Assembly (NCBI RefSeq): GCF_000341395.1
Contig: NC_020304.1
Location: 3,000,001-3,032,000, forward strand
DNA from: Desulfocapsa sulfexigens DSM 10523
Lineage (GTDB): Bacteria > Desulfobacterota > Desulfobulbia > Desulfobulbales > Desulfocapsaceae
Reading direction: 5' to 3'
Length of the DNA stretch: 32,000 nucleotides
A program made the translations under genes and the position numbers. Under the pieces are notes generated by a model. It saw only the letters and a program-made list of their open reading frames with translations. It ran no database searches and had not been told where the DNA came from. Positions 1,872 through 32,000 of the stretch are shown here, piece by piece (the stretch's first letter is position 1; the number at the start of each line of letters is the position of its first letter).

Positions 1872-1883
1872 TATTATCCTCCT

Positions 1884-2534
1884 CTAACCCATATGGATCA
1901 TTTTCCCATCAATCTTTATATTTTCTTTTGCAGTAACAACAGAATATTTGCCACGTAAGGACATCAGTCTTTCTGCATTGTAATCGATCTTACCAGCCTT
2001 AAGCTGATCAATATCTTCCACCTCACGGTAAGATCTTTTAACCTTTTGCCGCAAACAATCAAAAATTGATTCCATCTTTCCAGCCATCAATTTAACCAGG
2101 GCAACTTTACCCTCAAGGAAATTTCCAATATAGGATAAATGAGATATACTACACTCACTCTGCTCAGCCACTACCTGAAGATTTGTAGAGACAATGCGAA
2201 TCTGTGATGGACTGGTTACATTCACCCCCTGCTTACCTGCCAATTGCAGATTTCCATTTGGAGATAGCAGCTCAGTGTCGCCGTCAAAGAGAAGACGATT
2301 TCTGGTACTTTTTGTTCTCTCAAGTACAGATAATATATAACACTCACCAGCAGATGAACTTACCACTAGAACTTTGTCTTCAACTTCAGGATACAGTAAG
2401 CAACCAGCCGCTTTTTGTGCCCGATATCGGGAATCACCAACAGCTACCCAAAAACACTCTCTTTCAATTTCTACAACAACACCCATTTCCTGGAACATAG
2501 TAGGATCTTGTTCCTGTCTCGCAAGGTTATCCAT
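1884..2534 (-). CDS. DUF3540-like protein (TagC-like), T6SS spike accessory
   Basis: The ORF track gives 1884..2582 (232 aa). I prefer the internal ATG at 2534 (MDNLARQEQ..) because it is preceded by AAAGGAAAAACAA (Shine-Dalgarno-like) and removes the 19-nt overlap with the upstream gene. The product call rests mainly on conserved synteny between a pentapeptide-repeat gene and a DUF4150 gene. I cannot verify the family from sequence memory. Confidence 0.6.
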   Translation of the reverse strand: MDNLARQEQDPTMFQEMGVVVEIERECFWVAVGDSRYRAQKAAGCLLYPEVEDKVLVVSSSAGECYILSVLERTKSTRNRLLFDGDTELLSPNGNLQLAGKQGVNVTSPSQIRIVSTNLQVVAEQSECSISHLSYIGNFLEGKVALVKLMAGKMESIFDCLRQKVKRSYREVEDIDQLKAGKIDYNAERLMSLRGKYSVVTAKENIKIDGKMIHMG

Positions 2535-2563
2535 TTGTTTTTCCTTTATATGTTGAAAGTATA

Positions 2564-3619: not shown

Positions 3620-3629
3620 TTACTTGTGC

Positions 3630-6197: not shown

Positions 6198-6203
6198 GAG
6201 AAC

Positions 6204-8492
6204 CTAACTGAATATTTTAATACCGCATTTTTCCAATGCTATGGCACCATATTTTTGGATAAGAGCATTGCCGTCTTTTAGATCCATTGCTCCTTTGCCA
6301 AATCTCAAGCCATAGTTAATTTCTCCTATAATAGCTGAGCAGGTGACAAATTTGGCACCAACAAAATTTTCCATTGCTGTGCCGATGGTGAGGGTGTAGT
6401 CCTCTGCAAAATGTATCGTCTGAACACTCCCACTGGATATTGCCCGTGTCAACCCGTTACTATGGCCGGTATGATTCCCCCCGACATCAATATGACGATC
6501 GCCTGTTACTGTGTATTTATCATTTCCTCCTACAGAAAATTCTCTGTTTTGGTCGACACTATAAAACTGATTTCCTGTAACAGAGAAATCTTCAACGCCA
6601 TCGACAATCTCAATCCTATCACCATTGCAATTAATGAGATCTCCACCTCCAATAATATCAGTTCGTCCTCCACTTTCTATGGTAATATTCTGTCCTTGTC
6701 CAATGGTGACATTTTGCATCTGATTAATTTCGACATTCTCTTCTCCGGTAACCTCAACTTTGCGATTTCCATCAACATAAATATATTGTTTGTCAGAACC
6801 TGCACCAAACGCAAAAGTTGAAGTACCTACGGTTTTATTTTCACTTCCTGCAATTCCAATGTATTTACTGCCACCAACGGTTTCATCAGAGTTTTCATCG
6901 CATTCCGAAACCATTGTCCCATCCGTATGCAAATAAATATTACCGGCATTAACTGCCCCTAATGACACAATGGATCCTTTAGTTGGTGATGACATATGGA
7001 TCTGTTGCCCACCGTTGGAATCTTCAATCCGGATTTGATTTCCACCTGCGGTACGAATCATTGACTGAGTCTGGTTAGAGCCTGTTACCGGGCTGCCAGT
7101 CTCAGGATTGGGAACGGTTCCGGAAATGATGGGTCGATCCGGATCTCCATCAATAAAGGTCAGCAGTACCTCGGTTCCCTTGTGCAGTGGAAAATGCATG
7201 CCATAGTCAGCACCGGCATAGGGCTGTGCCATTCGCACCCACCGAGAAGCCTTTCCATCTGCAGAATCGCTTTGATCAAAGGGGAGTTTTATCTTATAGC
7301 GACCTTCGTCATCAATTTCAGCATACTCACCATCTCCACCCGCATCAACGGTACCGTTAAGCGTCCCCTTCAATTTGGGCTTTTCCGCCAACCTTTCTGG
7401 CCTGAATTGGGCGTCTGCTGGGATACAGGTGAAATTATTAAAATAAGATGGGCCCTGCATATCAGTTTCTTCGACCGTATCACCGGTTCCGGTCAGGTAG
7501 GTGGACTGTACTCCCTGATGAGAGAGTTCTGTTATCAGATAACGCTGATTATAGGAGTCCCTGTAGTGGTCGTGCATCTCAAAAATATAACCGGCAAGAA
7601 AAGGTGGTACGGTCCCTTCACCATAAAATATAGCCTCACGGCAGAGGATCTCTTCAGCACGTATTCGGGCTAAGGCATTTCCCTCCTCCGGTGTTTTGAA
7701 ATGTTCTCCATAAATATAGACATGACCACGCCCCTCTGTGTCCACATCTGCCTCTCCCTTGAGATCAAGAGAAGGCTTGCGATAGTTGTAGTCTTTCAGA
7801 ATGACTTTTTTAGGCAACAGATGCTGATGGCAGGTGAATTCGCGAACCTGCTCAGTGGTGGAAGGAGAGAGAGAATCCGGTGGTGAATACCGGATTGATT
7901 CTCCGGAAGGGATATCTTCGTGAGCAGTGGAGGCATCTGCAATAATCAGTTTTTCTGCATCATCACCCTGTTGAAAATAATAATAGATTCCTTCCCGTTC
8001 CATCCATCGGGAAATAAAATTAAAATCACTTTCGTTATACTGGCAGATGTACTCCCATGGAGCATAGTTACCAGTCAGTTTTAATTCATAATCATGAGTG
8101 GTAAGACCGGTTTGTTTGAGCACCTCTTCGATGATATCGGGAATACTTTTATCGAGAAAGAGCTGGTTTTCAAGGTATTGGTCGGAAATCCATAGTCGTG
8201 GAACCAGTATGGCTCGAAAATAAATATGTCCGGAATACTCATGCAACTGCTCAAAGCGGGATAGAATGCCATGAAAGACTCGAAGCTCTTCCCCGTTTTT
8301 CTCAATTCTTAATTTTACCGGATTTTTCAACACCTCTTTTAAGTTTATATCAGGGTCATCGGCATAAAGAGTTATGTCAAATTCATACAGTTTAGAGATT
8401 GCCTCTGTACCGTTAAATTCAGCAACAGTAAAGGTGTCGTCCGGCTGAGATGTGGAAGTGAAAATAAATCTAATGTTTTCCTCAACTGGCAT
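6204..8492 (-). CDS. vgrG: T6SS spike protein VgrG (TssI)
   Basis: 762 aa. N-terminal gp27-like region (FTVAEFNGTEAISKLYEFDITLYADDP..). gp5 OB-fold region (RWVRMAQPYAGADYGMHFPLHKGTEVLLTFIDGDPDRPIISGTVPN). A long beta-helical repeat region follows (..GGNQIRIEDSNGGQQIHMSS..VTGEENVEINQMQNVTIGQGQNITIESGG..). Its start overlaps the clpV stop by 1 nt. Confidence 0.95.
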   Translation of the reverse strand: MPVEENIRFIFTSTSQPDDTFTVAEFNGTEAISKLYEFDITLYADDPDINLKEVLKNPVKLRIEKNGEELRVFHGILSRFEQLHEYSGHIYFRAILVPRLWISDQYLENQLFLDKSIPDIIEEVLKQTGLTTHDYELKLTGNYAPWEYICQYNESDFNFISRWMEREGIYYYFQQGDDAEKLIIADASTAHEDIPSGESIRYSPPDSLSPSTTEQVREFTCHQHLLPKKVILKDYNYRKPSLDLKGEADVDTEGRGHVYIYGEHFKTPEEGNALARIRAEEILCREAIFYGEGTVPPFLAGYIFEMHDHYRDSYNQRYLITELSHQGVQSTYLTGTGDTVEETDMQGPSYFNNFTCIPADAQFRPERLAEKPKLKGTLNGTVDAGGDGEYAEIDDEGRYKIKLPFDQSDSADGKASRWVRMAQPYAGADYGMHFPLHKGTEVLLTFIDGDPDRPIISGTVPNPETGSPVTGSNQTQSMIRTAGGNQIRIEDSNGGQQIHMSSPTKGSIVSLGAVNAGNIYLHTDGTMVSECDENSDETVGGSKYIGIAGSENKTVGTSTFAFGAGSDKQYIYVDGNRKVEVTGEENVEINQMQNVTIGQGQNITIESGGRTDIIGGGDLINCNGDRIEIVDGVEDFSVTGNQFYSVDQNREFSVGGNDKYTVTGDRHIDVGGNHTGHSNGLTRAISSGSVQTIHFAEDYTLTIGTAMENFVGAKFVTCSAIIGEINYGLRFGKGAMDLKDGNALIQKYGAIALEKCGIKIFS

Positions 8493-18703: not shown

Positions 18704-21700
18704 TTAGTTATCCCAACAGTTTGTTATATCAGTGGGAACGTCAGGAAGTTTTTGTTCCCAGTTTTGTTTTATTTTCTGGGCCTCAGCCTGTTGTCTTGCC
18801 TTCCAGGATTTCTTCAAAGCTTCATTCTCAAGAGCAGTCATTTTCTGTTTCCGTTCCCATGTTGCAAGAAGTTCCTTGATGCCCTTGCTACTGTCTGCTG
18901 CCTGCATTTTGCGCTTTTCCTCAAGTTCGGCAAGGAACTTCTCCCTTTTTTCCTGCTGATCGATAATGCTGATAAGTGGTTGTCCGCCTTTGAGTTGAAA
19001 GTTGACCTTGATAGTTGTAATCCGCAGTCGGACCAACTGTTTCTTCTGGTCAGGAAAATCGTTTACTGAAAAAAGATGACTTCCATTCTGGAAATCTTTG
19101 GCAAAGTGGGCAAAGGCAAGTTTGCCCTCATATTTTTTCTTTAGAATAAGACTGCCTATTTCAATCTGCAGAGAAACTGATTCACAATTTTCAGGTTGCC
19201 ATGACATCTTTTTACGTATTGGATAATTTAAATTGACCAAACGCGTGGTTTCTGCACCGCATACGGACTCCAGTGTTGTGACATGGGGGGTGATTCTTGC
19301 CTCCTTGTTAACGCTGGTCGGATTGGCAGTTACCAGTATGTCATAGTTTGCATTAATAGTTGGCAGAGGAGGAATCTCGGGTTCCTTTTTCTTTTCCGGT
19401 TGAGCTCCGAAAACAGCATCTGCTTCAAGCTGCATATCAAGAGGTACTTCTTCGCTGAAGGAAAGATCAGGCTTGAAACGGACGAGGCGGATGCCGTCAG
19501 TGAGAAAATCCAGGAATTCTTTTTCGAAGGGGAGCATTTTACCCAGGGCTGTTTTTGGATAAAACCCCTTTTTGAGGCTCCTGCCAAGAAATGGGGCAGC
19601 TGGTCCTTTGATGAAACGAATGGCATAGCCGTCATCGAGAAAGAGCTCATCGTTCAGTTTTGTCTTGTCTGTTATATCCTGAACTTCCACAAGTACATTC
19701 TTTTCCCACAGGCTGTTTAAGTGACAGGCAGCCTCCAGGCAGGTATAATCTCGAAGAAAGGTGAGTGGGCCAGCAAGAAGCCGCCAGACCACTTTCTGTT
19801 GCTGGCCGGGTTGGCTCAGCTCTTTCCGGAAAGCCACGAGATGATGTTTGGCAAGATAGAAGGGGGACTTTGAAGTGGCAGGGTCGTCTTTGAAAATTTC
19901 AGCAGCCATACTGTAGGAGACCGTGCGAGAGGAGCTAGCCAGGGTAATGTCTTTTAGAGCCATCTGATAACTGTTGAATAACTTCCCTGCAGCAAGCTGA
20001 CTGGAAAGGATTCCGCTTGGATCAAGACCGGTTTTCTTTTCAAGGCTGCCGAGTGCCTTTTTCCCCTTTTTTGTTACCTTGGCAAGCAGAGAATTACTTT
20101 CTTCGATGGCAGCTTCTCGTGTGGCATCAATACGAGCCTGTTCTATCTGATTGATAAGAAGAATCCAGGTATTTTCTTTTTCATCTTCTTCCAGAGGGGC
20201 AAGTTCTCTGGCCATGGTTCGCAGCAGGGAAAAATAGGGGTTCTGATCTGTAGCCATGGTAGTGGCGACTTCCTGCCAGGAAGAACCATCACCCAGATAG
20301 TATTCAGCCTGGGGGAATTTTTCAGCAAAATCATACCATACCAGCCTGTAGGCCATCTCGTACCACTTTTGAAAACGTGCTTTATTGCTGGTGATCAAAA
20401 GAGGATCCGGCAATGCCGTACCGATATCTTCGAGCAGGGTATTGATTATATCTCTCCCCTTGATGGTGAAGGCAGGTGGTACCGTTGCGATATTTTTTCG
20501 GGTCAGGGGGGAGCTCCAGAAGTCCTGGACGTTCAGCGCGCTTGAATCGGAATTATGGTTGACCCATGAGACCAGCCAGTTGAGGCTGGTGTCGGGCATA
20601 CTAAGGATATGAAGGAGTGCACGCTGTAGACGTTCTTTTTCCAGATTAAGTGTTTCACTGCTCTCCTGCCAATTCAGGTAGTGGTGATATTGCAGGAGAA
20701 CCCTGTCACTGAGATCGGCTATGAGACGCCTGTCTTCTCCCCCGAAAAGAGCCTGAAAAGAGGGCTGTGCCTGCTGATCAAAACTTGATGGGTCCTTGTT
20801 GTCAAGCCGGGCCTGAATCAGGTTGATACGGTGCACAAGATGGGCAACAACGGTACCAATAATAACATCAGATGATCCAGGTGTTAACGCGGAGACAGCG
20901 GTGTCAAGTTGTATGTTGAGTCTTTCGTTGAACTCGCTGTTGAAGCGATGGCAGTATTTCTGTTTGAGACGGAGTTCGATGTCCTCACTTTTATTTAACC
21001 CGAAGCGGGGAATCCACCAGGCTCTGTTGTAGTCTTCCATGGTACTGATGGCCTTCTGGAAACGTTCCATCAGTGCTGTATCGGTAAGGAAGTCACCCTG
21101 GAGGACGACGGATTGTTTGAAAGCCTCAGTACCGTTTTGCAGTGTGGTCAGATTTTTAACAAATGAGAAACTTAACAGGCCGCAAAGGGTAAAGATTATG
21201 GCAGCCCAGGCTGTAAGACCAATGTTGCGTGTCAACCGATTCCAGGCAAGAGCTTTTTGGGTCGGGGCAAAGAGGGTACGGTCTTCGGGGAGGATACGGG
21301 AAAAAAGATCATGGAGAAAGAGTCCTTTATTGGTGCCAGGCAGGACGTCCTGCTGTTTGATCAAGCCAAGAGCATGGAGAAAGTTGGAGAAAGGGGTTCC
21401 TTCCTGGCGACCACTGCTGAAATAGAGCCCTCGCAGAATGGGGGATTCCTGGTAGGGGTTTGCCTTGAAGGTGGACTCGATAAAGGAGGAGAGTCGCCTG
21501 TGGAGAATTTTAAATTCGTTGGGAAAAAGAAGAAGATCCGCCGCGGATTGAGATTGTTTGCGGCTGGGATCCTGTTTACCGTGAAGCAGTTGCAGACGTA
21601 ATTGCTGAAGACGGTCACCAATGGTAGAGTCCACATCCTGAAGAAATGTTCTGATATCCTTGTGATTCCTGTTTATCAGTCCCATGGCCTGTTCAAGGCT

Positions 21701-22519
21701 CTTGTCGGGCAGACGGTCACAGAACTGCGTCATACCCTGCACCAGATCACACTTGGTGATGAGAACATAGACAGGAAAAACTTTCCCTAAAACCCGCATC
21801 AGCTCATCAATGCGTTGCCTGATGTTTCGACCATCCTCGGCAATGCGATCATCATCTGCCTGCAGCAACTTGTCTGCTGCTATAGTTACTACCAGACCAT
21901 TGAGGGGTTCTTTTCTGCGATATTTGACCAACAGGGAGAGAAACTTCTGCCATTCATCCTTATCACGTCCTTCTTCCAGTGGTATGGTATAGCGTCCGGC
22001 GGTGTCGAGGATGACTGCCTGTTCAAAGAACCACCAGTCACAGTTTCGTGTGCCGGCAACACCTCCAATTTTACTGGTTTCAGCAAAGGGCGCAGAAAGA
22101 TCTGCACTCTTGATAGCCGTTGATTTTCCAGAGCGTGACTCCCCGATAACCATATACCATGGCAGGACATAGAGAGGGTTGCCCTGTTTGCTCAGGTGGG
22201 AGGATTTGAGAATTTCAATTGCTTCCTGCCATCGTCCCTGAAGCTCCTGTAATCCTTCCTGGCCACTTCCCGCTCCTTTGATATAGGCATTGTCCTGTTC
22301 GATAACCTGATGGACAAAATTCTGTTCCCTTTTTCGGAGGAGGATTTTCCGAAAAAATATCCAGCCGAGATAGAGACCAACATAGCCAAGTAGAAAAAAG
22401 AGTCCGATCCACCATGGCCATTTTGCCCAGAGAACCAGGCCAAAGGTAGCAGTAGCGATCAGAAGCAGAAGGCTTGTCAGTAAGAGGAATTTAAAGGCGG
22501 CGAGCATTATCTTTTTCAT
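18704..22519 (-). CDS. tssM: T6SS membrane-complex protein TssM (IcmF)
   Basis: 1271 aa. N-terminal TM helices are present (LLLTSLLLLIATATFGLVLWAKWPWWIGLFFLLGYVGLYLGWIFF). There is a Walker A NTPase motif (VIGESRSGKSTAIK) and a third TM near residue ~440. A large periplasmic C-terminal part follows. Its start overlaps the tssL stop by 1 nt. Confidence 0.93.
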   Translation of the reverse strand: MKKIMLAAFKFLLLTSLLLLIATATFGLVLWAKWPWWIGLFFLLGYVGLYLGWIFFRKILLRKREQNFVHQVIEQDNAYIKGAGSGQEGLQELQGRWQEAIEILKSSHLSKQGNPLYVLPWYMVIGESRSGKSTAIKSADLSAPFAETSKIGGVAGTRNCDWWFFEQAVILDTAGRYTIPLEEGRDKDEWQKFLSLLVKYRRKEPLNGLVVTIAADKLLQADDDRIAEDGRNIRQRIDELMRVLGKVFPVYVLITKCDLVQGMTQFCDRLPDKSLEQAMGLINRNHKDIRTFLQDVDSTIGDRLQQLRLQLLHGKQDPSRKQSQSAADLLLFPNEFKILHRRLSSFIESTFKANPYQESPILRGLYFSSGRQEGTPFSNFLHALGLIKQQDVLPGTNKGLFLHDLFSRILPEDRTLFAPTQKALAWNRLTRNIGLTAWAAIIFTLCGLLSFSFVKNLTTLQNGTEAFKQSVVLQGDFLTDTALMERFQKAISTMEDYNRAWWIPRFGLNKSEDIELRLKQKYCHRFNSEFNERLNIQLDTAVSALTPGSSDVIIGTVVAHLVHRINLIQARLDNKDPSSFDQQAQPSFQALFGGEDRRLIADLSDRVLLQYHHYLNWQESSETLNLEKERLQRALLHILSMPDTSLNWLVSWVNHNSDSSALNVQDFWSSPLTRKNIATVPPAFTIKGRDIINTLLEDIGTALPDPLLITSNKARFQKWYEMAYRLVWYDFAEKFPQAEYYLGDGSSWQEVATTMATDQNPYFSLLRTMARELAPLEEDEKENTWILLINQIEQARIDATREAAIEESNSLLAKVTKKGKKALGSLEKKTGLDPSGILSSQLAAGKLFNSYQMALKDITLASSSRTVSYSMAAEIFKDDPATSKSPFYLAKHHLVAFRKELSQPGQQQKVVWRLLAGPLTFLRDYTCLEAACHLNSLWEKNVLVEVQDITDKTKLNDELFLDDGYAIRFIKGPAAPFLGRSLKKGFYPKTALGKMLPFEKEFLDFLTDGIRLVRFKPDLSFSEEVPLDMQLEADAVFGAQPEKKKEPEIPPLPTINANYDILVTANPTSVNKEARITPHVTTLESVCGAETTRLVNLNYPIRKKMSWQPENCESVSLQIEIGSLILKKKYEGKLAFAHFAKDFQNGSHLFSVNDFPDQKKQLVRLRITTIKVNFQLKGGQPLISIIDQQEKREKFLAELEEKRKMQAADSSKGIKELLATWERKQKMTALENEALKKSWKARQQAEAQKIKQNWEQKLPDVPTDITNCWDN

Positions 22520-23193
22520 TACTGCACCATGGAAATAAAGTTTTCACCGACATTATCAAGGACAAAACGATAAATGAAAAAAAGAACGCCATAGAGTAGC
22601 ACAGGAACCGTAGCACCTAATACCACACCAATTGGAAACCGACTGCTATCATTAAATTTTTCAGGGGTGGCTCCCTCCTGCAGGTAAGCATCGGGAAAAA
22701 GCGTTTTCTGGTCAAATGATCGCAGATCTGTTGTCCCTCCTATAAGTTTCAGATTGGAGTTCTTAAGCTGTTCCAGAAGAAACTCATCTCCAGGGTTACA
22801 GTAGCGGCCAGTGAATCCAAGAGCCAGACAGAGGTAGTATACTTCACGCACCTGCCCCTGTTGTGGGGTCAGCTGGTTCAGCTTGTCAAAGAAGAGTTCA
22901 CCGCCATCGGTGGTTTGATAGTAGGTACGCTGCAGCTGTTCCCCCTGCCATTTACTTTTTTCCTCCCAGTTTGAGCTGAGAATGGCCTCATCGATCCAGG
23001 CAAAGACTGCAAAACGGGAAAGATCATAATCTTCCTGGGGTAAATGGCTTTTGTGAAAGCTATCCTGACTTTTGGCGATCAGGTGGCTGATGTCGGTTTT
23101 GACCTTTTCAAGTGAGGCGGGCCGATTTGGTGTATCGTTGAGAAAATAGGTAACATAAGCGATTAATTCTACGAAACAGTCCACAAGTGCCAT
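22519..23193 (-). CDS. tssL: T6SS membrane-complex protein TssL (DotU family), without peptidoglycan-binding extension
   Basis: 224 aa. DotU-like cytoplasmic domain (VDCFVELIAYVTYF.., FAVFAWIDEAIL, VYYLCLALGFTGRY). A single C-terminal TM (FPIGVVLGATVPVLLYGVLFFIY) is present. The protein ends shortly after the TM, so there is no OmpA-like domain. Confidence 0.9.
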   Translation of the reverse strand: MALVDCFVELIAYVTYFLNDTPNRPASLEKVKTDISHLIAKSQDSFHKSHLPQEDYDLSRFAVFAWIDEAILSSNWEEKSKWQGEQLQRTYYQTTDGGELFFDKLNQLTPQQGQVREVYYLCLALGFTGRYCNPGDEFLLEQLKNSNLKLIGGTTDLRSFDQKTLFPDAYLQEGATPEKFNDSSRFPIGVVLGATVPVLLYGVLFFIYRFVLDNVGENFISMVQ

Positions 23194-23195
23194 AG

Positions 23196-24587
23196 TTATC
23201 TCCTGCCAACAACCATAAGTTCAGCCTTAAGATCTTCAGGTGCTTCGTCCCAGAAAATTGCCAGCTGATTGCTGTGCTGCACCTGTTGCCAGAGGTCGCC
23301 ATGATGATCAATTTGAAAATAGAGTGAACCACGCCTGCGGGGAAGCTCCTGCGGTGGTGTCTCCATATGTTTTACTTTGACTCCTGGCAGGGCTCTGGCA
23401 ATAAGTAACGGCAGAGTTTCCCGCGAACCTATCTTGGCCAGACCGGCAAAGCTCTGCAGAGCTTGATTGGGCTCCTGTTCCGTTGCCAGAACGAGATAGA
23501 AACGATTATGAGAATCAAACATGGATTTTGAGAGTTCGCCGCTGAAATACGTACCATCATAAATGAGCGGCAGCATGTATTCGGGGCCGGCTGTAATCTC
23601 ATCCAGTAGGCGCAGCAGGACATTTTGCGCCGACAGAAAGCAGGTGTGCAGTTTACGGTGATTGTAGGGCGGAACCAGAACAGTGCCGTTTTCATGTTCT
23701 CCAAGTACATTTATTGTCTCAGAGAAACTTGATAGTTCACCGATGATTTGACGCAGAAGACCGTATACCGTCCAGGGATGGACAGTCTGGGCTTCGGTTA
23801 TCTGAAAGAGGAGAGGAATATATCGGTTGAGTGAACGCAGGGCGAGAAGGAAGATTGTATCTTGGGCACCGAATTCTGCCGTATGAACACCACGTTCACG
23901 CTTGTAGGCCTCAAGGAGATGGGATCTGGAGGCGAGCTGGTCACGGATTTCAGTAACTAATCCCATAAGGGGTTCGCTTGCCTTGATACTGAGGCAAGGA
24001 GGGAAAAAACGGTTGGAGCGTACAATCTGCTCACCCTGCCGTAGAATACGGGCAAGGGGAATCAACTCATAGTCTCCCAGCTGGTCTTCTTCACTGTCCC
24101 AGAAAATTTTCAAGACGTAATGGAGGCGTTTAACCTGGGCACTTTTTCCACCCTGATAGAGATCCTGCACCTCTTCTGGCTCTGTAGTGGTAACAAAGCG
24201 GGTGGCCACATCGCTGACATTATCAAGACTGGAGAGGATGGTAACATTCTCGCCACCAGGATTCCATTTGCGCAGTCCTAGAAGAATTCCAAGTGGCTTG
24301 TCGCCTTCCAGCCAATCCTCACTGAATGAGCGGGGAGCAATCAGTCCATTCTCAGGAAAAGAGATAAAGCTGCCATCGGGAAATTGAAACTGTCCCTGGA
24401 GAACTTGCAAGGAGAGGTTACCCAGTGCTGCGTCCTGGATTTTAAGATTGCCGATACCCCAGAAATGCGGTTGCAGGAAAGTCTGCAGGGGCATGGTCAT
24501 GGATTGGATATAACGGTCCTGTAGTTGAAAGTGCTGGGGTTGGAGAAAGAGTCCCTGATGCCAGAAAAAAGGTCGTTCCATGATCAC
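23196..24587 (-). CDS. tssK: T6SS baseplate protein TssK
   Basis: 463 aa. The N-terminus ERPFFWHQGLFLQPQHFQLQDRY is the hallmark TssK start (W.eG..L.PQHFQqqdry). It sits in the conserved tssJ-tssK-tssL-tssM synteny. Confidence 0.9.
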   Translation of the reverse strand: MIMERPFFWHQGLFLQPQHFQLQDRYIQSMTMPLQTFLQPHFWGIGNLKIQDAALGNLSLQVLQGQFQFPDGSFISFPENGLIAPRSFSEDWLEGDKPLGILLGLRKWNPGGENVTILSSLDNVSDVATRFVTTTEPEEVQDLYQGGKSAQVKRLHYVLKIFWDSEEDQLGDYELIPLARILRQGEQIVRSNRFFPPCLSIKASEPLMGLVTEIRDQLASRSHLLEAYKRERGVHTAEFGAQDTIFLLALRSLNRYIPLLFQITEAQTVHPWTVYGLLRQIIGELSSFSETINVLGEHENGTVLVPPYNHRKLHTCFLSAQNVLLRLLDEITAGPEYMLPLIYDGTYFSGELSKSMFDSHNRFYLVLATEQEPNQALQSFAGLAKIGSRETLPLLIARALPGVKVKHMETPPQELPRRRGSLYFQIDHHGDLWQQVQHSNQLAIFWDEAPEDLKAELMVVGRR

Positions 24588-24591
24588 TCCT

Positions 24592-25122
24592 TCAGTGCGT
24601 TTGGATTGCAGCTATCTGTTCGGAACCCAGGTTTACGATCAGATTGAGTTTGCCGGCTTCGGCATATTTATAGCTTTTGTCTATAATAACAGGGATGTTG
24701 ATGGTTCGTACCATCCTTTCTTTCTGTAATACAAAGTAACCGGCTACCAGTCCAATATGTTTTGTCCCAGCAAGTCGATCCATGACAATTGTCAAATCCT
24801 GTTCTGGCTGGATAAAAAGGCGTTTGACGGAAGTAACACTGCTGTCAAACGGTTCACAGTCCAGCAGTTGGTAAATGCCGTCGCTGTTAGAAGCCAGTTG
24901 CTCAAACATGGCCTTGTTACGTAACTGGTATATACCAACCATTAGAGTATGAGGAGTACCTTCGTTCAGATTTAACAGGTGATCCGCCTTTATCCGCATG
25001 GTGATGCTGTCTTTTTCATAGACCCACTGCGGAACCGGAGGAGGTGCCGGGGCTTTTGAGCCACAGGAAGATAACAGGACAAGGCTGGAGAGAAGGATGA
25101 TAAGGGTGAAATATCGTTTCAA
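24592..25122 (-). CDS. tssJ: T6SS outer-membrane lipoprotein TssJ
   Basis: The ORF track gives 24592..25323 (243 aa), but that N-terminus overlaps the upstream gene by ~200 nt. An in-frame TTG at 25122, preceded by AAGAGG 7 nt upstream, gives a 176-aa product. It reads (M)KRYFTLIILLSSLVLLSSCGSKAPAPPP, a signal peptide with lipobox LLSS-C. The size and position upstream of tssK fit TssJ. Confidence 0.8.
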   Translation of the reverse strand: MKRYFTLIILLSSLVLLSSCGSKAPAPPPVPQWVYEKDSITMRIKADHLLNLNEGTPHTLMVGIYQLRNKAMFEQLASNSDGIYQLLDCEPFDSSVTSVKRLFIQPEQDLTIVMDRLAGTKHIGLVAGYFVLQKERMVRTINIPVIIDKSYKYAEAGKLNLIVNLGSEQIAAIQTH

Positions 25123-25126
25123 GGTA

Positions 25127-25864
25127 TTACCTCTTGGGAGGGTTGGCCATTGCAGCACATTGTTTTTCAAAGTTTCGTAAAAAATCTTCCATACAGCGCC
25201 CGGAGTCAAACCATCGGCGACACTCCTTATATGTTTTTTCGTAACGATTAAAGCTTTCGGCCTTACGTAAGGGGTTAAATTTAAATCCACCCTCATCTTT
25301 TCCTGCAAGACTGTCAGGATCAAGTTCCGTAAGAATCGTTTCTACAGTAGTTTCCATTGCCCTTTTAAAAGCGCGGTGCGATGTAACAAAAGCCGTCTTG
25401 ATCTTGTCCAGATGTTCCTTGAGTGAGGTGCTCTCGTGGTTTTTGTCGAGTTGTTCACCTATGAGGACGCGGATAGTCTTCTCGGTTTGCCCATCCTCAA
25501 GCAGAGTCAGATTTATTGTTCTGATAAGCTGATTGAGAGTCTCAAAAATTATGGTAAGTGTCTCGGTCAGTCGTTGTTGCAGGGCCTCGCTTTTCAAATC
25601 AATTTCTTCGACAGGGTGTCCCAAAAGGAGGGTACAGAAGCGGAGAAGCTGGTCATCACTATGGGATGGCATCGGAGGGGGGGCTGGAGATGCAGTGAAG
25701 CTGGAGATAATATCCTCAAGTATCTGCTGTTTTTTTTCATTATCATGACCCTTGAGCTCCTGATCGAGAAATGCCTCTATGGCAGCGGGCGCATTTTCAA
25801 TGTCCCGTTTGTAGATATTTCTGATGGTATCGACAAGGGAACCAACATTTGGATAAAGGTTCAT
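25127..25864 (-). CDS. Protein resembling the C-terminal module of TagH (T6SS Fha), but lacking an FHA domain
   Basis: 245 aa. It occupies the slot immediately upstream of tssJ that tagH/fha holds in many clusters. The C-terminal stretch ELDPDSLAGKDEGGFKFNPLRKAESFNRYEKTYKECRRWFDSGRCMEDFLRNFEKQC resembles, from memory, the conserved TagH C-terminal pattern (..k.W..Y...Y......ed.F...F...F..aY). No FHA signature is visible. Its ATG overlaps the upstream stop as ATGA. Confidence that this is a real CDS is high; the figure given is for the family assignment. Confidence 0.45.
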   Translation of the reverse strand: MNLYPNVGSLVDTIRNIYKRDIENAPAAIEAFLDQELKGHDNEKKQQILEDIISSFTASPAPPPMPSHSDDQLLRFCTLLLGHPVEEIDLKSEALQQRLTETLTIIFETLNQLIRTINLTLLEDGQTEKTIRVLIGEQLDKNHESTSLKEHLDKIKTAFVTSHRAFKRAMETTVETILTELDPDSLAGKDEGGFKFNPLRKAESFNRYEKTYKECRRWFDSGRCMEDFLRNFEKQCAAMANPPKR

Positions 25865-27135
25865 GACTTTTTCCCTGGTCGGAGAATGATTGTTTCTGCG
25901 AGCTCGTCATTTTCAGGTATGGGGTTCTTTTCTGAAAGCTGCCCGTCGGGGTGCTCCGGAGTGTAAGTTGTATTAAAGGTTGCTTTGTCAGGAGGAGGCA
26001 TTTTTACAGTTTGCACTGTATCCTCATCAGTGGAGAAATGGTTTTCAGGACCTCCCATAATAACGGTTTCCTGGCTGAAATCATCAACTGTGTCACTGTC
26101 TCTGACCGATGAAATGTGGTTGCTGGATATATTTTCTTTATGGAAAGAGACAGGAGCTTTTTGTTTATGCTTTTGAGCAAGCTTTTGCATAATAGTAAGA
26201 ATTGCTTCATCATGGTTCTGTTCTCCTCTTTTTTCCTGGATAGTGTCTGTTGGGCTGGGAACAGAGGCAGATGGCTCCTGAAAAGATGGGAACTGTTTGT
26301 GTTGCAGCAGTGGCAGTAAATGAAACCCGTCGAGAGAGTCACGTTCAGTTATCAGCATATAGAAAGGATAAAAAGCGAGTCCAAATATGGTGTCATGCAC
26401 GGCCTGTTGGGAGCCGTAGCAGAGTTCATGATCCTGACAATTCAGACAGGGGAAAGGATTATCCTGCAAAGGTTGCGAATCAAATTTGCTGTAATCGATA
26501 AACAACTGTCTGCAATCGTGAACAGTTGAAGGCTCGTTAGCTTGTTTTTCTCGAGTATACCATAGAGACTGGCCATTTGACTGGGTGCATGAAGGACAGA
26601 AGAGATAGCGGTGCAGACCTGTTGAGTATGGAGCCAATCCGGCCAACTGAAGCAGCACATCATCTTTGCAAAGCTGTAAAGTCTTGCCACATTCGGGGCA
26701 GGGGAGTTCAAAAAAAACTTCTTTTTTCCTGCAGTAGAAGAGAGATGCAAAGGCCAGCAGTTGCTGCTGTCTGTCAACTTGGGTGGCAAGTAGAATAGAG
26801 TGTTCGGGTGTTCTGGCACGACGCATAGTCATCGCCTGCTGCCAGTACTGATCAATTATGGAGTTGTTGAGAAACGAATCCTGCTCTAGGGGCCATTGGA
26901 TAGTATCCCGTTGAATTAACAGATTAACCTCTTTGATAGTGGAGCCAAAATCAGTGACAAATGCACCACGGAAAGTTCGGGCAAGCGGGTCTGCGTCATT
27001 AAGTATTGTAAAGGGAGCCGATGAGAAGTTATCGGGTGATGTGTTGGGTGTGGCCGGTCGGAGACGCAGGTAGAACTTTTGTTGTTCGGGGAGAAGATAT
27101 GATAGAAGGGAGGGATGGACACTTGTTTCTTTCAT
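25861..27135 (-). CDS. Uncharacterised Cys-rich (putative zinc-ribbon) protein with a disordered acidic/Ser-rich C-terminal half; first gene of the T6SS array
   Basis: 424 aa. CxxC pairs are present: ELPCPECGKTLQLC .. YLFCPSCTQ .. FPCLNCQDHELCYG. The C-terminal ~150 aa are low-complexity (QEPSASVPSPTDTIQEKRGEQNHDE.., SSVRDSDTVDDFSQE.., PEHPDGQLSEKNPIPENDE). It is translationally coupled (ATGA) to the next gene. I recognise no family. Confidence 0.6.
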   Translation of the reverse strand: MKETSVHPSLLSYLLPEQQKFYLRLRPATPNTSPDNFSSAPFTILNDADPLARTFRGAFVTDFGSTIKEVNLLIQRDTIQWPLEQDSFLNNSIIDQYWQQAMTMRRARTPEHSILLATQVDRQQQLLAFASLFYCRKKEVFFELPCPECGKTLQLCKDDVLLQLAGLAPYSTGLHRYLFCPSCTQSNGQSLWYTREKQANEPSTVHDCRQLFIDYSKFDSQPLQDNPFPCLNCQDHELCYGSQQAVHDTIFGLAFYPFYMLITERDSLDGFHLLPLLQHKQFPSFQEPSASVPSPTDTIQEKRGEQNHDEAILTIMQKLAQKHKQKAPVSFHKENISSNHISSVRDSDTVDDFSQETVIMGGPENHFSTDEDTVQTVKMPPPDKATFNTTYTPEHPDGQLSEKNPIPENDELAETIILRPGKKS

Positions 27136-27301
27136 ATTATGTTTATCTCTTTCACACTTGAATGTGGTGAGCGTTACATGAATTCGAACTTGAAAGCTGC
27201 TGATATCACTTCGGGTTATTTATTTAATACACCATGTTCAAGGAGATTTTGTCAAGTTTATTATCAGGTTTCCCAAACTCCTTAGTTGCTGTTTTACTCG
27301 G
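27136..27301 (-). promoter_or_regulatory. Intergenic region between the efflux operon and the first T6SS gene; probable T6SS promoter region
   Basis: 166-nt non-coding gap. A perfect TTGACA sits at 27255..27250 (minus strand), but the best downstream -10 (TATTAA) is at a poor 20-nt spacing. A direct repeat TTCAAGT occurs twice, ~40 nt apart, closer to the ATG. No GG-N10-GC sigma54 pattern was found. Confidence 0.3.
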
Positions 27302-28576
27302 TCAGGTAGAACTGCCAAGAGCGACGATTGGATCTATACGAGAGGCTTTTTGGGCAGGATAGAGACCAAAAAAGAGTCCGATTAGTATTGCTACAACCAG
27401 AGGGACAATAAGGCCGGGTATTGAGAATGTGATTGGCCATTTTGTGAGAGAGCCAATAACAAGAGAAAGAAAGATGCCGCCGACAATTCCCAAAAGCCCG
27501 CCTGTGAAGGTGAGAAGCACCGCTTCACTGAGAAACTGGGCAAGAATATGTTCGGGACTGGCACCTACAGCGCGTCTGAGACCAATCTCTTTTATTCGTT
27601 CGGATATGTTGGCAAGCATGATATTCATGATCCCTATACCTCCGATGATAAGAGAAAGTGCCGCTATTATGCCTAAAACAATATTGAATATATGCTGAAT
27701 TCTTTGCGATTGCGCAAGTAATTCAAGGGGAATGACAAGCTGAAAATCATCTACTCCGTTATGGGCAATCTCCAGGCTGCGGCGAATAAGCATAGCTGCT
27801 GTGGAGATCTGGTCTGTGCTGTGTATTCTCACTATGATTTCACTCAACGGCGGCTTGTCGTACGATGATGTGTTGTTTGTCCTGCTATCTGATTCAATAA
27901 CATCAAGTGGAAAAAAAATTGTGTCATTGAGGTTTTGCATGGTGAACTGTGTTTCGGCGGTGTTTGAGAGATCCTGACGGTTGAGAACACCCACAACCTG
28001 GAAGAGCTGATCTCCAATGCGAAGAGATTGTCCAAGCCGCCCATTTTCACCAAGTCTACTGGCGATCTGCCAGCCAAGGACACATACCTGGTTTCGCTCA
28101 CCTGTATCTGATTCGCTGATAAAACGACCATTATCAAGTTTGATGCCAAGTATACGACCATAACTTGCTGTACATTCAACAAGCTTGGGGCTCAGGTGCT
28201 CGGGGAGTCCGGTTAAATTGAGAGCCCGTTCTCTGGCCGCTGCGGTGTCACTGATAAAAGAATTATTGCTTTGCAGTCGATAACGATCGTCGTCCTGCAG
28301 GCCGGCTGAATGGTGCTCCCTGGCACGTGACCGTTGTTCCGGGGTCAGTTGGTCTGCCCTGATGTATATGTTGTTCACGCCCATTTTTTCAATCTGTCGT
28401 AACGTTTCCTGCTTCGCTCCATCACCGATGGCGATGATAGCCACCACAGCCATGACACCGCAGATAATACCTAGAGTAGAGAGAGTTGAACGGAGCTTAT
28501 GCTGCAGCAGGGAAGAGCAGGCGGTTTTGATGATTATTTTGATGAAATGTTTGTGTTTATTCAAGGTAACCATCAA
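27302..28576 (-). CDS. ABC transporter permease, MacB/FtsX-type (N-terminal TM, large periplasmic domain, C-terminal FtsX 3-TM bundle)
   Basis: 424 aa. It starts ..LRSTLSTLGIICGVMAVVAIIAIGDGAKQE, typical of the MacB/LolC N-terminus. The C-terminal FtsX-like region reads ..RIKEIGLRRAVGASPEHILAQFLSEAVLLTFTGGLLGI... It overlaps the ATPase gene by 20 nt. Confidence 0.88.
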   Translation of the reverse strand: MMVTLNKHKHFIKIIIKTACSSLLQHKLRSTLSTLGIICGVMAVVAIIAIGDGAKQETLRQIEKMGVNNIYIRADQLTPEQRSRAREHHSAGLQDDDRYRLQSNNSFISDTAAARERALNLTGLPEHLSPKLVECTASYGRILGIKLDNGRFISESDTGERNQVCVLGWQIASRLGENGRLGQSLRIGDQLFQVVGVLNRQDLSNTAETQFTMQNLNDTIFFPLDVIESDSRTNNTSSYDKPPLSEIIVRIHSTDQISTAAMLIRRSLEIAHNGVDDFQLVIPLELLAQSQRIQHIFNIVLGIIAALSLIIGGIGIMNIMLANISERIKEIGLRRAVGASPEHILAQFLSEAVLLTFTGGLLGIVGGIFLSLVIGSLTKWPITFSIPGLIVPLVVAILIGLFFGLYPAQKASRIDPIVALGSST

Positions 28577-29243
28577 TCATGTACCGTGTAGACCGGGCAA
28601 GTTTGGCAACATCGCGATCGTGGGTGACCATTATAACGGTGCAGCCCTGTTTATTGATTTCTTGAAATAAGGAGAGGACTTCCAGAGTGCTGGAATGATC
28701 AAGATTACCTGTGGGTTCGTCTGCCAGGATAAGCTCAGGTTGCATGGCAAGAGCACGTGCAATCGTTACTCTTTGCATCTCTCCACCGGAGAGTTCAGCT
28801 GGCTTGTGCATCATGCGCTTGTCCAGACCAACCTGATCGATGGCCCGACGGGCATTTTCACCGGCCTGTTCAGGCGCCATTCCATTGTAAAGGGCGGGAA
28901 GCAGGACATTTTCCATTACTGTCATTGCAGGTAACAGGTGAAAATTCTGAAAAACATGAGCAACAGTGTTTGCCCTGAGCCTTGCAAGTTCCTTCTCTTT
29001 AAGTTGCAGTATGTCTCGATTGTTGAGAAAATAGCTACCACTGCTTGGTCTCAGGAGGCAACCGAGAATGTGAAGAAGGGTAGACTTTCCTGAACCAGAT
29101 GCACCCATAACAGCGATAAACTCACCATGATGAACATCCATGTCAACGCCGTGCAGTACTTCTATCTTTCCGGATCCATGGGGATAGTGGTGACGAAGTT
29201 CTCTTGTGGAAATGAGCATATTCTGTTTATCGTTCCGGCTCAT
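28557..29243 (-). CDS. ABC transporter ATP-binding protein (MacB/LolD-like)
   Basis: 228 aa. Walker [17 protein letters not shown]-loop, ABC signature [15 protein letters not shown], Walker [13 protein letters not shown] and H-loop VTHD are all present. Confidence 0.93.
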
Positions 29244-30679
29244 CAGTTAATGACGGGATGTATCATGGATACGGTTTCTCCCGCCTTGAGTCCATCGGTT
29301 ACCTCTATGAAGTTTTCATTGCTGTATCCGGTATGTATACGGCGTAATACCAGTTTGCTGCCGTTTTTGACATAGCAGTAGTGGCCACTGCTGTCATGGA
29401 ATACAGCTTCCACAGGAAGTGACAGGGCCTGTTGCAGATTGGCAGTCTCAATAATAATACGGGCAGACATGCCTGGTCTGAGTTTTTTCTCTACCCTGTC
29501 AAAGGAGAAGTGAACCTGGAAGTATTTTTCTCCCTCTCTGCGTCCTGGTCGTTTCTTTGCCAATGCACCGATAAAAGAGAGTCTGGCTGGAAAACTGATG
29601 TCGGGATATGCTTCTACGGTGATGGTTGTACTCTGACCAATAGCCACTTTATGGAGATCAATTTCACGAATTGTACTCTTCACAATAAGACTCTCGATGT
29701 CGGGTAGATAGAGAATAGGGCTGTTAATTATAACAGTGTCGCCTTCACGGACAGTTCGCATTTCGCCATTGTAGAAACTTTCATGGTGGATAAGGAGACC
29801 GTCAAAGGGAGCACGTAGTACGGTTTTATCAAGCTCTGATTCTGCCTGTTCCAGAGCAGTTTGTTTTGCCTTCAGCTTTGCCATTACCTGCTGAATAGCA
29901 GCCTGGGCCCTGGCAATTTTGTGGACACCAGCCTGTCGTATTTGCTGATAAGCAAGTTTTGCATTTTCTACCTTGGCCTTGCTACTCTCCGTAAGAGAAG
30001 GCAGCACCAGGTCTCGATAACTTTTATAGCGACGGTCGGCGCTGGCAAATTGTTCAGTAAATGTGTCAATTTTTTCCTGTCCACGACTGATTTCGGCAGG
30101 ATTACTGTATCCATCGTCAGCCAGTAGCTTCAGGTCTCTTACATAGTCCTGGTAGCGTTTGAGTTCAGACTGGGCTTTATCACGTTCGTCCTGATATTGG
30201 GTAAGGGTTATGGGACCTTCACCCTGAACGAGTCTGTCAAATTCAAGACGGGCCACCTTGAGATTGTAGTCTGATGTGGTAACTCGCTGGGCCAACTCGG
30301 TTTTTTCCCACTCGAGTAACTGTTCCGCTGCATTGACACCGGCGCTGAGATCATCGATCTGGGCAGAGAGTTCTGCAATGATTTCTTCAAATTGAGTTGG
30401 ATCAAATCGGACCAGTACATCTCCTTTTTTTACAGGATAGCCATCAGGAGCGAGATAAATAACCTTTGCTCCGGCCCCCTTAATGCTGGATGATACGAAA
30501 TAAGCGTTGACCGCTTCTAAAGTGCCAAGGGTCTTCACTGTAATTTGAAAATCGCGAAGGGTGGCTGTGGTGAAGGAGGAAGGTTTTTCTTGTACCTGTT
30601 CGTCACTGCTCCAAAGGACTTGAGTTAATGTGAAGGCAAAAAAAACCAGAACAGCGGTGAGTAGAAAAAAACGTTTCAT
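29243..30679 (-). CDS. Periplasmic efflux adaptor (HlyD/MFP family)
   Basis: 478 aa. N-terminal signal/anchor (MKRFFLLTAVLVFFAFTLTQVLW). Lipoyl-like motif (YLAPDGYPVKKGDVLVRFD). A long coiled-coil hairpin region is present, then a beta-barrel C-terminal part (..LRAPFDGLL..). Its start overlaps the TolC-like stop as ATGA. Confidence 0.9.
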   Translation of the reverse strand: MKRFFLLTAVLVFFAFTLTQVLWSSDEQVQEKPSSFTTATLRDFQITVKTLGTLEAVNAYFVSSSIKGAGAKVIYLAPDGYPVKKGDVLVRFDPTQFEEIIAELSAQIDDLSAGVNAAEQLLEWEKTELAQRVTTSDYNLKVARLEFDRLVQGEGPITLTQYQDERDKAQSELKRYQDYVRDLKLLADDGYSNPAEISRGQEKIDTFTEQFASADRRYKSYRDLVLPSLTESSKAKVENAKLAYQQIRQAGVHKIARAQAAIQQVMAKLKAKQTALEQAESELDKTVLRAPFDGLLIHHESFYNGEMRTVREGDTVIINSPILYLPDIESLIVKSTIREIDLHKVAIGQSTTITVEAYPDISFPARLSFIGALAKKRPGRREGEKYFQVHFSFDRVEKKLRPGMSARIIIETANLQQALSLPVEAVFHDSSGHYCYVKNGSKLVLRRIHTGYSNENFIEVTDGLKAGETVSMIHPVIN

Positions 30680-32000
30680 GGTTTTGTCTCAGGAGAATAG
30701 GCAAGCAGGGTACCCATGACAGCACGCAGTCGGTATCCGTTTATGATATAGTTGATCTCGTCGGACATGAGATTTACTCTGGCGCGCTCGACCTGGGTTT
30801 GAGATTCAATGAGGTCGAAATTGTCTGCTTCGTTGTACTGGAATTTAATATGGGCCAGTCGTTGTTTACCAGTTGCCTGGATAAGCTGTTCCCGTCGAAG
30901 TGCTATTCGTTCCTCTGATTTTTCCAGGGAGTTGAGCACCGTTCGGACCTCACGGATAATGTTTTGCTGAGATGACTCGAATTTAAGATTCTCGCGCTTG
31001 ACAGCGAGACGACTCTTTGCCCAGGCGGTTTTTTCTTCTGAACGTGCCAGGTCGGTACTGCTTGTCAGACCAATACTCCAACGGTCCTCATCGAAAAAAA
31101 GAACATCCCCAAAGTCGCTTGAACGGCCCCGCCGAGTGTAAGTACTTACAAGTTTGAGCTCTGGAAGAGTGTTATGCCGGGCGATCTTTTCCCGGCGCAT
31201 TGCCTCAGCGATATCGGCTTTACTCTGGAATGATTCAATCCGTTGTTTAAGAGCTATCTTGACGGCCTGCTCCCTCTTCATCGTGATGAGTGTGTATTCC
31301 TGTGGAGCTTCAACATAAATGGGGCTGTCAAGTGGCAGGGCAACAATATCTTTTAAACGATCAGCGATTTCAGCGACCCGTTCTCTGGCGAGGCTCAAAC
31401 TCTCTTGGATATCTTTTATACGAATTTCTGCACGATAAATATCCATGGATTTCGCAATGCCGGATTTTTCTTTAACAATTGCACTTTTTAAATGGACTTT
31501 AAGATGTTTAAGTTGCTCGGTGTAGAGAGAAACCAGATGTTGTTCCCGGATAAGGGTGTAGACAGTGGTGACTGTATTGAGGATTGTATTTACTTTTTTT
31601 TGATGCAATGTTCGGTCTGAAGAGGCGAGGGCGTATTCGCTGGCATAAACACTGTCCAAGTTGATATCTTTCCCCAGACCACGTATCAGTGGTATTGCAA
31701 GTGAAAAACCAACCCCTGCACCATACTCATCAGTCTCCTTTTCGATACTTGGTTCCAGATTCAGGATGACACCGCTTGTAAACTTTTTAGAGATCAACCC
31801 TCCAACTCTCCAGATGGACTGTTCTTCCTCGGGGTTTGAGGTGTAATTAATACTGGAAAGAGGGTTGACCTTAATGTCAAAAGTGTTCTGGGCTGCTTCC
31901 ATATTGAGGCGACTGTTATCCAGATCCAGAGTGTCACTGATAAGGTTGCGATTGTAGCGGAGGGCTCTTGCGACAGCAGTCTCCAAAGTAAGACGAACAG
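30676..32000 (-). CDS. TolC-family outer-membrane efflux protein (5' end beyond window)
   Basis: The frame remains open upstream of the TTG listed at 31986 (..VRLTLETAVARAL..), so the true start is probably off window. The sequence is rich in the helical repeats typical of outer-membrane factors (..AEIRIKDIQESLSLARERVAEI.., ..LIESQTQVERARVNLMSDEINY..). It is the first gene of the adaptor-ATPase-permease operon. Confidence 0.8.
   Translation of the reverse strand, partial: VRLTLETAVARALRYNRNLISDTLDLDNSRLNMEAAQNTFDIKVNPLSSINYTSNPEEEQSIWRVGGLISKKFTSGVILNLEPSIEKETDEYGAGVGFSLAIPLIRGLGKDINLDSVYASEYALASSDRTLHQKKVNTILNTVTTVYTLIREQHLVSLYTEQLKHLKVHLKSAIVKEKSGIAKSMDIYRAEIRIKDIQESLSLARERVAEIADRLKDIVALPLDSPIYVEAPQEYTLITMKREQAVKIALKQRIESFQSKADIAEAMRREKIARHNTLPELKLVSTYTRRGRSSDFGDVLFFDEDRWSIGLTSSTDLARSEEKTAWAKSRLAVKRENLKFESSQQNIIREVRTVLNSLEKSEERIALRREQLIQATGKQRLAHIKFQYNEADNFDLIESQTQVERARVNLMSDEINYIINGYRLRAVMGTLLAYSPETKP

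Follow-up and report, generated by a model that had tools for sequence, protein, structure and literature searches.

A type VI secretion cluster of Desulfocapsa sulfexigens encodes, in the tagH position, a homologue of the TagH C-terminal domain without FHA

The 32,000-nt stretch of Desulfocapsa sulfexigens DSM 10523 analysed here (NC_020304.1, positions 3,000,001 to 3,032,000; referred to below as the window) contains one complete type VI secretion system (T6SS) cluster on its minus strand. The gene directly upstream of tssJ, where canonical clusters carry tagH, encodes a 245-aa protein that we call TagH-C. The threonine-phosphorylation pathway of the T6SS has TagH, also named Fha, as its central output. 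Profile and genomic comparisons support the identification of TagH-C as a stand-alone homologue of the TagH C-terminal domain that lacks the FHA domain, and they tie it to a Cys-rich protein encoded immediately upstream.

TagH-C and its relation to canonical TagH

A preliminary description of the window had placed a 245-aa open reading frame (ORF) immediately before tssJ, in a conserved tagH slot, and the ORF and its position are as described there. In the seven canonical clusters that we fetched, tagH is found immediately 5' of tssJ, and the TagH-C gene likewise precedes tssJ-tssK-tssL-tssM. At its 5' end the start codon overlaps the stop codon of the 424-aa gene upstream (ATG and TGA, in ATGA), and at its 3' end TAA and the TTG start of tssJ at 25122 are 4 nt apart. 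The protein consists of an N-terminal module, a short linker modelled with low confidence, and a T6SS_FHA_C-like domain. Residues that are invariant or nearly so across the family include Gly82, Asn111, Thr130-Ile131-Arg132, Pro183 and Glu233.

Single-sequence searches place TagH-C at the edge of the known families. Against Pfam T6SS_FHA_C (PF20232) it scores 23.9 bits with an E-value of 4e-5, at the gathering threshold of 23.7, and the HMMER alignment pairs residues 164–232 with profile positions 102–177 of 180. The TIGR03354 TagH model gives 12.3 bits (E 0.11) against a cut-off of 120.25 and is matched only over profile positions 339–415. Of the two profile tests, then, the Pfam family is reached and the TagH family is not. 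The same weak PF20232 match recurs in 25 of 26 close homologues (E<0.01), many of them below the gathering score, and in many distant family members. When a 61-sequence alignment of the TagH-C family was compared by hhalign with 11 canonical TagH C-terminal regions, the probability was 94.3% and the E-value 1e-7, with 157 colinear columns that run from residue 81 to residue 245 of TagH-C and cover the Pfam domain of the canonical set from end to end. The canonical regions came from annotated plasmids and chromids of Thalassospira, Bradyrhizobium, Bartonella, Proteus, Halomonas, E. coli, Vibrio, Rahnella, Photobacterium, Azospirillum and Phaeobacter. Because the match covers the whole canonical domain, the homologous region is ∼165 residues long and the whole C-terminal domain appears to be present (residues ∼70–245). 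The resemblance to TagH claimed in the preliminary description is thus borne out by both PF20232 and hhalign, but its extent, given there as the last ∼60 residues, was set too short. Judged from these alignments, the domain appears to be complete but very divergent.

No FHA domain was detected in TagH-C by Pfam at E≤1 or by NCBIfam, and the AlphaFold2 model, built from 61 diverse sequences, is all-α with a mean predicted local distance difference test score (pLDDT) of 87.2 and a predicted template-modelling score of 0.56; an earlier model from close homologues only had reached a pLDDT of 62.6. The reported lack of an FHA signature is therefore upheld, and a cryptic FHA domain in this ORF is ruled out by the two profile libraries and the helical model. 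With its C-terminal domain and cluster position, but without FHA and with a TIGR03354 score below cut-off, the protein falls outside TagH by the defining features of that family, yet appears to carry the TagH C-terminal domain in the tagH slot. Leaving aside whether the domains were split or never fused, TagH-C represents a naturally occurring form of TagH with its domains separated. Complete canonical TagH proteins that we fetched are 426–568 aa in length.

The N-terminal module lies outside the hhalign match to canonical TagH. In the AlphaFold2 model it forms three helices (residues 7–20, 25–36 and 42–57) with pLDDT >80. In three relatives of 367–370 aa (P0049, P0075 and P0080) this ∼55-residue module is present in three tandem copies, and the triplication suggests that it may be an independent binding module.

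TagH-C belongs to a large family. A profile search run exhaustively against 1.84 billion representative proteins returned at least 237 clusters (50% identity) at E≤1e-3, 166 of them at E≤1e-30. Nearly all members are 235–255 aa long and match end to end, and the invariant residues are kept throughout this set, even in members with as little as 28% identity. The ten longest members among the matches listed contain no FHA domain. The idea that long members are FHA fusions was therefore rejected: ten were scanned without finding FHA, and the six that were read are explained by triplication of the N-terminal module or by a repeat tail of the type found in the upstream protein, the latter in P0082, P0063 and P0146. 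Because only 237 clusters were found at E≤1e-3 and the longer members scanned have no FHA, the matches listed suggest that the family is a deeply separated branch of the T6SS_FHA_C domain. Its named members are all Desulfobacterota (Desulfatitalea, Desulfobacterales, Desulfobacteraceae and Candidatus Electrothrix), and they are annotated as hypothetical or, misleadingly, as "FHA domain protein". The family is widespread among relatives of sulfate reducers, including relatives of the cable bacteria.

In its overall setting TagH-C resembles TagH/Fha1 of well-studied systems (PA0081, VCA0112 and the Serratia Fha): the C-terminal domain is homologous, the gene stands directly 5' of tssJ-tssK-tssL, a Hanks kinase/PP2C pair is encoded near the cluster, and TagF is encoded in related clusters. 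It differs in having neither an FHA domain nor a long Pro/Ala/Gln linker, in its additional three-helix N-terminal module, and in being preceded by a gene for a putative zinc-ribbon protein with a repeat tail (9/10 contexts), which is missing from canonical systems. The reciprocal case is the Rhizobium/Agrobacterium-type Fha (ImpI), which has an FHA domain and no PF20232 match at E≤0.01. That protein is likewise a T6SS accessory component encoded in a similar slot, and Agrobacterium Fha binds phosphorylated TssL (PMC3953482, as reviewed in PMC13584744). With an FHA-only Fha in Rhizobium-type systems and a C-domain-only protein here, the two modules of TagH exist apart in different T6SS lineages.

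The Cys-rich partner and its repeat tail

The protein encoded upstream of TagH-C has a Cys-rich N-terminal domain, probably a double zinc ribbon, and an acidic low-complexity tail. We retrieved 105 members of this partner family (P0256–P0360), ranging from 424 to 884 aa; they share a nine-Cys N-terminal domain and an acidic tail, with an optional insert of ∼250 aa in between. The invariant cysteines, numbered as in the D. sulfexigens protein, are Cys135, 146, 149, 156, 180, 183, 230, 233 and 239, and include three CxxC pairs. Neither the protein (E≤5) nor its family contains a Pfam domain, and no relative was found in the PDB. A cryptic FHA domain in the partner was considered and rejected, with an hhalign probability of 0.15% between the 105-sequence partner alignment and a 45-sequence FHA alignment and no match in Pfam.

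Ten genomic contexts, which span family members down to ∼35% identity to TagH-C, were compared, and in nine of them the gene immediately 5' of TagH-C encodes a partner homologue (Table 1). In seven of the nine the stop and start codons overlap by 4 or 1 nt, and in the other two the genes are separated by 2 and 16 nt. In L082, a tail with eight copies of the repeat motif described below and the TagH-C protein share one ORF of 546 aa that heads tssJKLM, and no zinc-ribbon domain was found nearby; P0063 and P0146 have the appearance of the same kind of fusion. This pairing, translational coupling and fusion argue that the upstream Cys-rich protein is a functional partner of TagH-C. The preliminary description had predicted an interaction of TagH-C with either this protein or the FHA-SLT protein at the far end of the cluster, and the link to the upstream protein now has strong comparative support in the adjacency, the overlaps, the fused tail and a pair that travels together outside a T6SS cluster; the survey of homologous clusters that it proposed found the stand-alone TagH-C gene with its Cys-rich partner again in L001, L004–L006, L016 and L086–L088. 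The pair just mentioned (L086, from a metagenome-assembled genome) encodes proteins of 748 and 285 aa with no adjacent T6SS gene, and may be a relocated or repurposed copy.

The tails of the partner family carry a repeated motif with the consensus DDDLxETVILSP. Across the 105 proteins the motif occurs on average 3.9 times in the last 260 aa, versus 0.17 times in shuffled sequences; at least two copies are present in 98/105, and in 82/105 one copy lies within the last 16 residues. None of 12 canonical TagH/Fha sequences contains it, which excludes TVIL as a general feature of the TagH linker. The threonine is preceded by acidic residues; positions +1 and +2 are Val or Ile, position +3 is large and hydrophobic, and Ser, Lys or Arg and then Pro come next. 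FHA ligands favor a hydrophobic residue at the third position after the phosphothreonine, and the tail motif fits this preference. It also resembles the motif of mycobacterial Hanks-type Ser/Thr kinases, X-acidic(4)-T-X-(X/V)-hydrophobic-(P/R)-I (PMC6888350). By this analogy the tail threonines are candidate kinase substrates and FHA ligands.

The cluster and its kinase/phosphatase neighbors

On the minus strand the cluster reads, from its head, the Cys-rich partner, TagH-C, TssJ, TssK, TssL, TssM, TssA, TssB, TssC, Hcp, TssE, TssF, TssG, ClpV and VgrG, followed by a DUF2169/pentapeptide protein, a pentapeptide protein, a DUF3540 protein, a PAAR-like protein and, at the left edge of the window, a protein with an FHA domain, a transmembrane (TM) helix and an SLT domain (FHA-TM-SLT). 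The mechanical tssJ ORF (24592–25323, 243 aa, from TTG 25323) would overlap TagH-C by ∼200 nt and is an over-extension. From TTG 25122 the protein begins MKRYFTLIILLSSLVLLSSC, a lipoprotein signal peptide with the lipobox LLSSC, and its length of 176 aa agrees with the 175–189 aa of TssJ in relatives. No terminator-like site was found in 24900–27500, which covers the partner gene, TagH-C and the start of tssJ. The ATGA overlap, the 4-nt gap and the lack of a terminator indicate that these three genes are tightly packed at the operon head. A scan of the coding strand 5' of the partner gene found no consensus σ70 promoter and is uninformative on regulation.

The FHA-TM-SLT protein combines an FHA domain that has the GR/SxxH/NG phosphothreonine-binding residues, a single TM helix and an SLT domain. 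Both Pfam domains were found in a metagenomic contig whose DNA is 100% identical (L085, 1063–2529). MltE, which is recruited by TssM in enteroaggregative E. coli, and TagX of Acinetobacter are known T6SS peptidoglycan remodelers. Like them, FHA-TM-SLT would act on peptidoglycan for a T6SS, as a lytic transglycosylase that is anchored in the membrane and has its gene in the cluster; unlike them, it bears a cytoplasmic FHA domain, implying phospho-dependent recruitment, and its connection with TagH-C is hypothetical. We regard it as a candidate phosphothreonine reader and a candidate phospho-regulated peptidoglycan remodeler with a cytoplasmic FHA domain and a periplasmic lytic transglycosylase.

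The region beyond the left edge was read from two metagenomic contigs that overlap the window, L085 (100% identical) and L084 (98.7% identical). Among its genes are those for a protein with two FHA domains (the double-FHA protein), a phosphatase of the PP2C type and a Hanks kinase (Table 1). The SLT protein had been described as carrying the only FHA domain in the window. This stands for the ORFs scanned, but the double-FHA protein, the PP2C and the kinase are encoded ∼5–10 kb beyond the edge. The cluster is thus flanked by a full Ser/Thr signaling set in which FHA-SLT is not the sole FHA candidate, and the double-FHA protein beside the kinase and phosphatase is an equally good FHA donor.

Species-level genomes with an FHA-SLT homologue number 60 and belong to Desulfobacterota, Acidobacteriota and Rhodothermales. 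Among 37 such loci with long flanks, PP2C is encoded within 10 kb in 18, a kinase in 11 and at least one T6SS-like gene in 18. Named TagH-C members are confined to Desulfobacterota, and named partner members to Desulfobacterota and one Nitrospirota record. FHA-SLT belongs to a separate kinase/phosphatase module.

Two further gene sets were seen in the window. The region 1464–8492 (minus strand) encodes a spike/effector-loading set of VgrG, a DUF2169-pentapeptide protein (855 aa), a pentapeptide-repeat protein (351 aa), a DUF3540 protein and a Tox-PAAR-like protein, in which the scans recognized no toxin domain. Upstream of the T6SS cluster, 27302–31986 holds an efflux operon of MacB/HlyD/TolC-like type, identified from inspection of its translations rather than by family search and judged to be unrelated.

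Table 1. Features of the window, of the region past its left edge and of the loci compared
Feature	Location	Strand	Basis or remarks
TagH-C, FHA-less TagH-C-terminal-like protein, 245 aa	25127–25864	−	ORF, ATG to TAA
Three-helix N-terminal module, residues 1–57	25694–25864	−	AlphaFold2; family-specific
T6SS_FHA_C-like helical domain, residues ∼68–240	25145–25663	−	hhalign and Pfam
Cys-rich partner with acidic repeat tail, 424 aa	25861–27135	−	Stop overlaps TagH-C start (ATGA)
ETVIM motif copy, T357–M360 of partner	26056–26067	−	Motif scan
Terminal ETIILRP motif copy, T415–L418 of partner	25882–25893	−	Motif scan; ∼7 residues before stop
tssJ lipoprotein gene	24592–25122	−	True start TTG at 25122; 176 aa
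tssK, tssL, tssM (baseplate and membrane-complex genes)	18704–24587	−	Same operon, downstream of tssJ
FHA-TM-SLT protein, 488 aa	1–1454	−	Last 4 codons outside window; right after PAAR-like gene
Region past the left edge	L084, 3094–11610		In order: unknown proteins of 259 and 255 aa; fused VipA+VipB-like sheath paralogue, 522 aa; double-FHA protein, 339 aa; PP2C; trypsin-like protein; Hanks kinase with PEGA; AhpC-TPR-CsgG protein
Contexts with partner directly upstream of TagH-C	Window, L001 (Electrothrix communis), L004 (Desulfatitalea), L005, L006, L016, L086, L087, L088		Nine contexts
Pair without adjacent T6SS gene	L086, 7755–10858		Metagenome-assembled genome; 748 + 285 aa
Named TagF-bearing clusters	L004, L005, L006, L016, L087, L088		tagF between tssM and tssA in four
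Rhizobium sophoriradicis plasmid Fha, 389 aa	L067, 3842–5011		Upstream of tssK

Proposed function and competing explanations

We consider it on balance probable that TagH-C is a TagH-equivalent accessory component of the Desulfobacterota-type T6SS and that it works together with its Cys-rich partner. The two proteins would be made together by translational coupling and would form a bipartite cytoplasmic factor that acts when the membrane complex and baseplate of the T6SS (TssJLM-TssK) are assembled. TagH-C would supply the assembly-promoting function of the canonical TagH C-terminal domain, and the zinc-ribbon domain and disordered acidic tail of the partner would replace the canonical FHA domain and linker in trans as the regulatory input. 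The Hanks kinase/PP2C pair beside the cluster may act on the tail threonines, the phosphorylated motifs may dock FHA domains in trans (those of the double-FHA protein and/or FHA-TM-SLT), and docking may couple the phospho-signal, and possibly local opening of the peptidoglycan, to assembly. The physical interaction of the two proteins, phosphorylation of the tail, FHA docking and the role in assembly are the parts of this scheme that we infer. A specific relay, in which the Hanks kinase phosphorylates the Thr of ETVILSP and the tail, held at the membrane complex by TagH-C, recruits FHA-TM-SLT and/or the double-FHA protein, seems unlikely in this full form. If true, it would mean that the peptidoglycan is opened exactly where and when the T6SS is built, and that the TagH C-terminal domain is the anchor to the TssJLM/TssK complex.

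The repressor TagF bears on this proposal. TagF has been reported to repress the T6SS post-translationally by binding Fha/TagH (PMC5995506, PMC13584744), and a TagF gene (TagF_N, DUF2094) directly follows tssM in seven more distant clusters of the TagH-C type. If TagF also binds Fha in these FHA-less clusters, its target would have to lie outside the FHA domain. In a 2025 preprint 22% of tagF loci are classed as lacking fha (10.64898/2025.12.08.692957); loci of the TagH-C type would be counted among them if Fha were recognized by its FHA domain.

Several observations weigh against TagH-C as a TagH equivalent. The PF20232 match barely reaches the gathering score and is limited to the final 40% of the model, and identity to canonical TagH is ∼16%. 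Structural comparison gave no match: a Foldseek search with the AlphaFold2 model against the PDB and BFVD returned nothing below an E-value of 0.8. The clusters of the window and of Electrothrix have no TagF. The L086 pair lies away from T6SS genes, and its partner protein lacks the TVIL motif. Finally, the canonical C-terminal domain is without known function (PMC13584744), so that a role shared with it is not yet a mechanism.

The similarity to TagH might also be a chance match between helical proteins, and the gene an unrelated, lineage-specific T6SS gene: the Pfam score is just 0.2 bits over threshold, TIGR03354 gives 12 bits and no structural match was found. We regard a chance match as highly improbable, given the hhalign result, which is colinear across the entire domain, the recurrence of the weak match in 25 of 26 members and many distant ones, and the identical genomic slot. 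Sequence searches of the PDB with profiles of the TagH-C and partner families likewise found no match; to our knowledge there is no solved structure of a TagH C-terminal domain, and none surfaced in the structure searches made. That TagH-C is shorter than canonical TagH might instead mark it as a decaying tagH remnant that has lost its 5' FHA-coding part. This explanation is effectively refuted by conservation: a length of ∼245 aa and the invariant residues persist throughout a family of at least 237 clusters, including members with only 28% identity, the operon is intact, the genes are coupled and the AlphaFold2 model is confident.

Two other explanations accept the homology but assign the protein a different role. 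In one, set out in the preliminary description, TagH was once a single protein that became divided; FHA-TM-SLT would today carry the FHA half, bind TagH-C directly and so reconstitute TagH in trans. Relatives in Desulfocapsaceae, Desulfopila and Electrothrix have the FHA-SLT gene within the cluster. In L016 this gene is the second after tssM, behind tagF and downstream of the pair. The FHA domain of the protein keeps its phosphothreonine-binding residues. The distribution of FHA-SLT, which is wider than that of the pair, argues against it as the other half of a split TagH; its homologues extend to Acidobacteriota and Rhodothermales, phyla without named TagH-C members, and are mainly linked to PP2C or kinase genes. 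The TagH-C gene is coupled to the zinc-ribbon gene instead, a second FHA protein adjoins the kinase, and nothing points to a split event. We therefore found no evidence for the proposed splitting and re-partnering and consider direct reconstitution quite unlikely; a functional link through phosphothreonine may exist. In the other explanation the pair does not act on the machine at all but is a regulatory device, exerting transcriptional or anti-activator control on the T6SS operon. The pair heads the operon, zinc ribbons often bind nucleic acids, and in L086 the pair stands away from T6SS genes. V. cholerae TagH is also reported to affect hlyA transcription (PMC8993066, PMC13584744). Pfam detects no DNA-binding domain in either protein, however, the position and homology fit an assembly factor, and the distant clusters also encode TagF, which is reported to repress post-translationally by binding Fha. 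Purely regulatory action thus appears very unlikely, and an assembly factor formed with the Cys-rich partner is the explanation that we retain.

How TagH/Fha works is still called unclear in a 2026 review of T6SS accessory factors (PMC13584744). Neither in that review nor in full-text searches on Desulfobacterota T6SS and PF20232 did we find mention of an FHA-less TagH, of a role for the C-terminal domain or of the partner family, and a literature search by T6SS_FHA_C or PF20232 returned one paper, which is unrelated. TagH itself is known; the FHA-less form is not described in the literature searched. The TagH-C family is a large natural one in which the C-terminal domain occurs alone, in a small soluble protein with a confident AlphaFold model, and together with the FHA-only Agrobacterium-type Fha it indicates that the halves of TagH are separable modules. 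The family thereby offers a clean handle on the binding partners of this domain, such as TssK, TssL, TssM or TagF. Surveys that find TagH by its FHA domain would score Desulfobacterota clusters, including those of cable-bacteria relatives, as lacking Fha, a bias that bears on the recently described tagF loci without fha. The partner, with its repeated acidic Thr motif, provides new candidate components or substrates of T6SS-linked Ser/Thr signaling.

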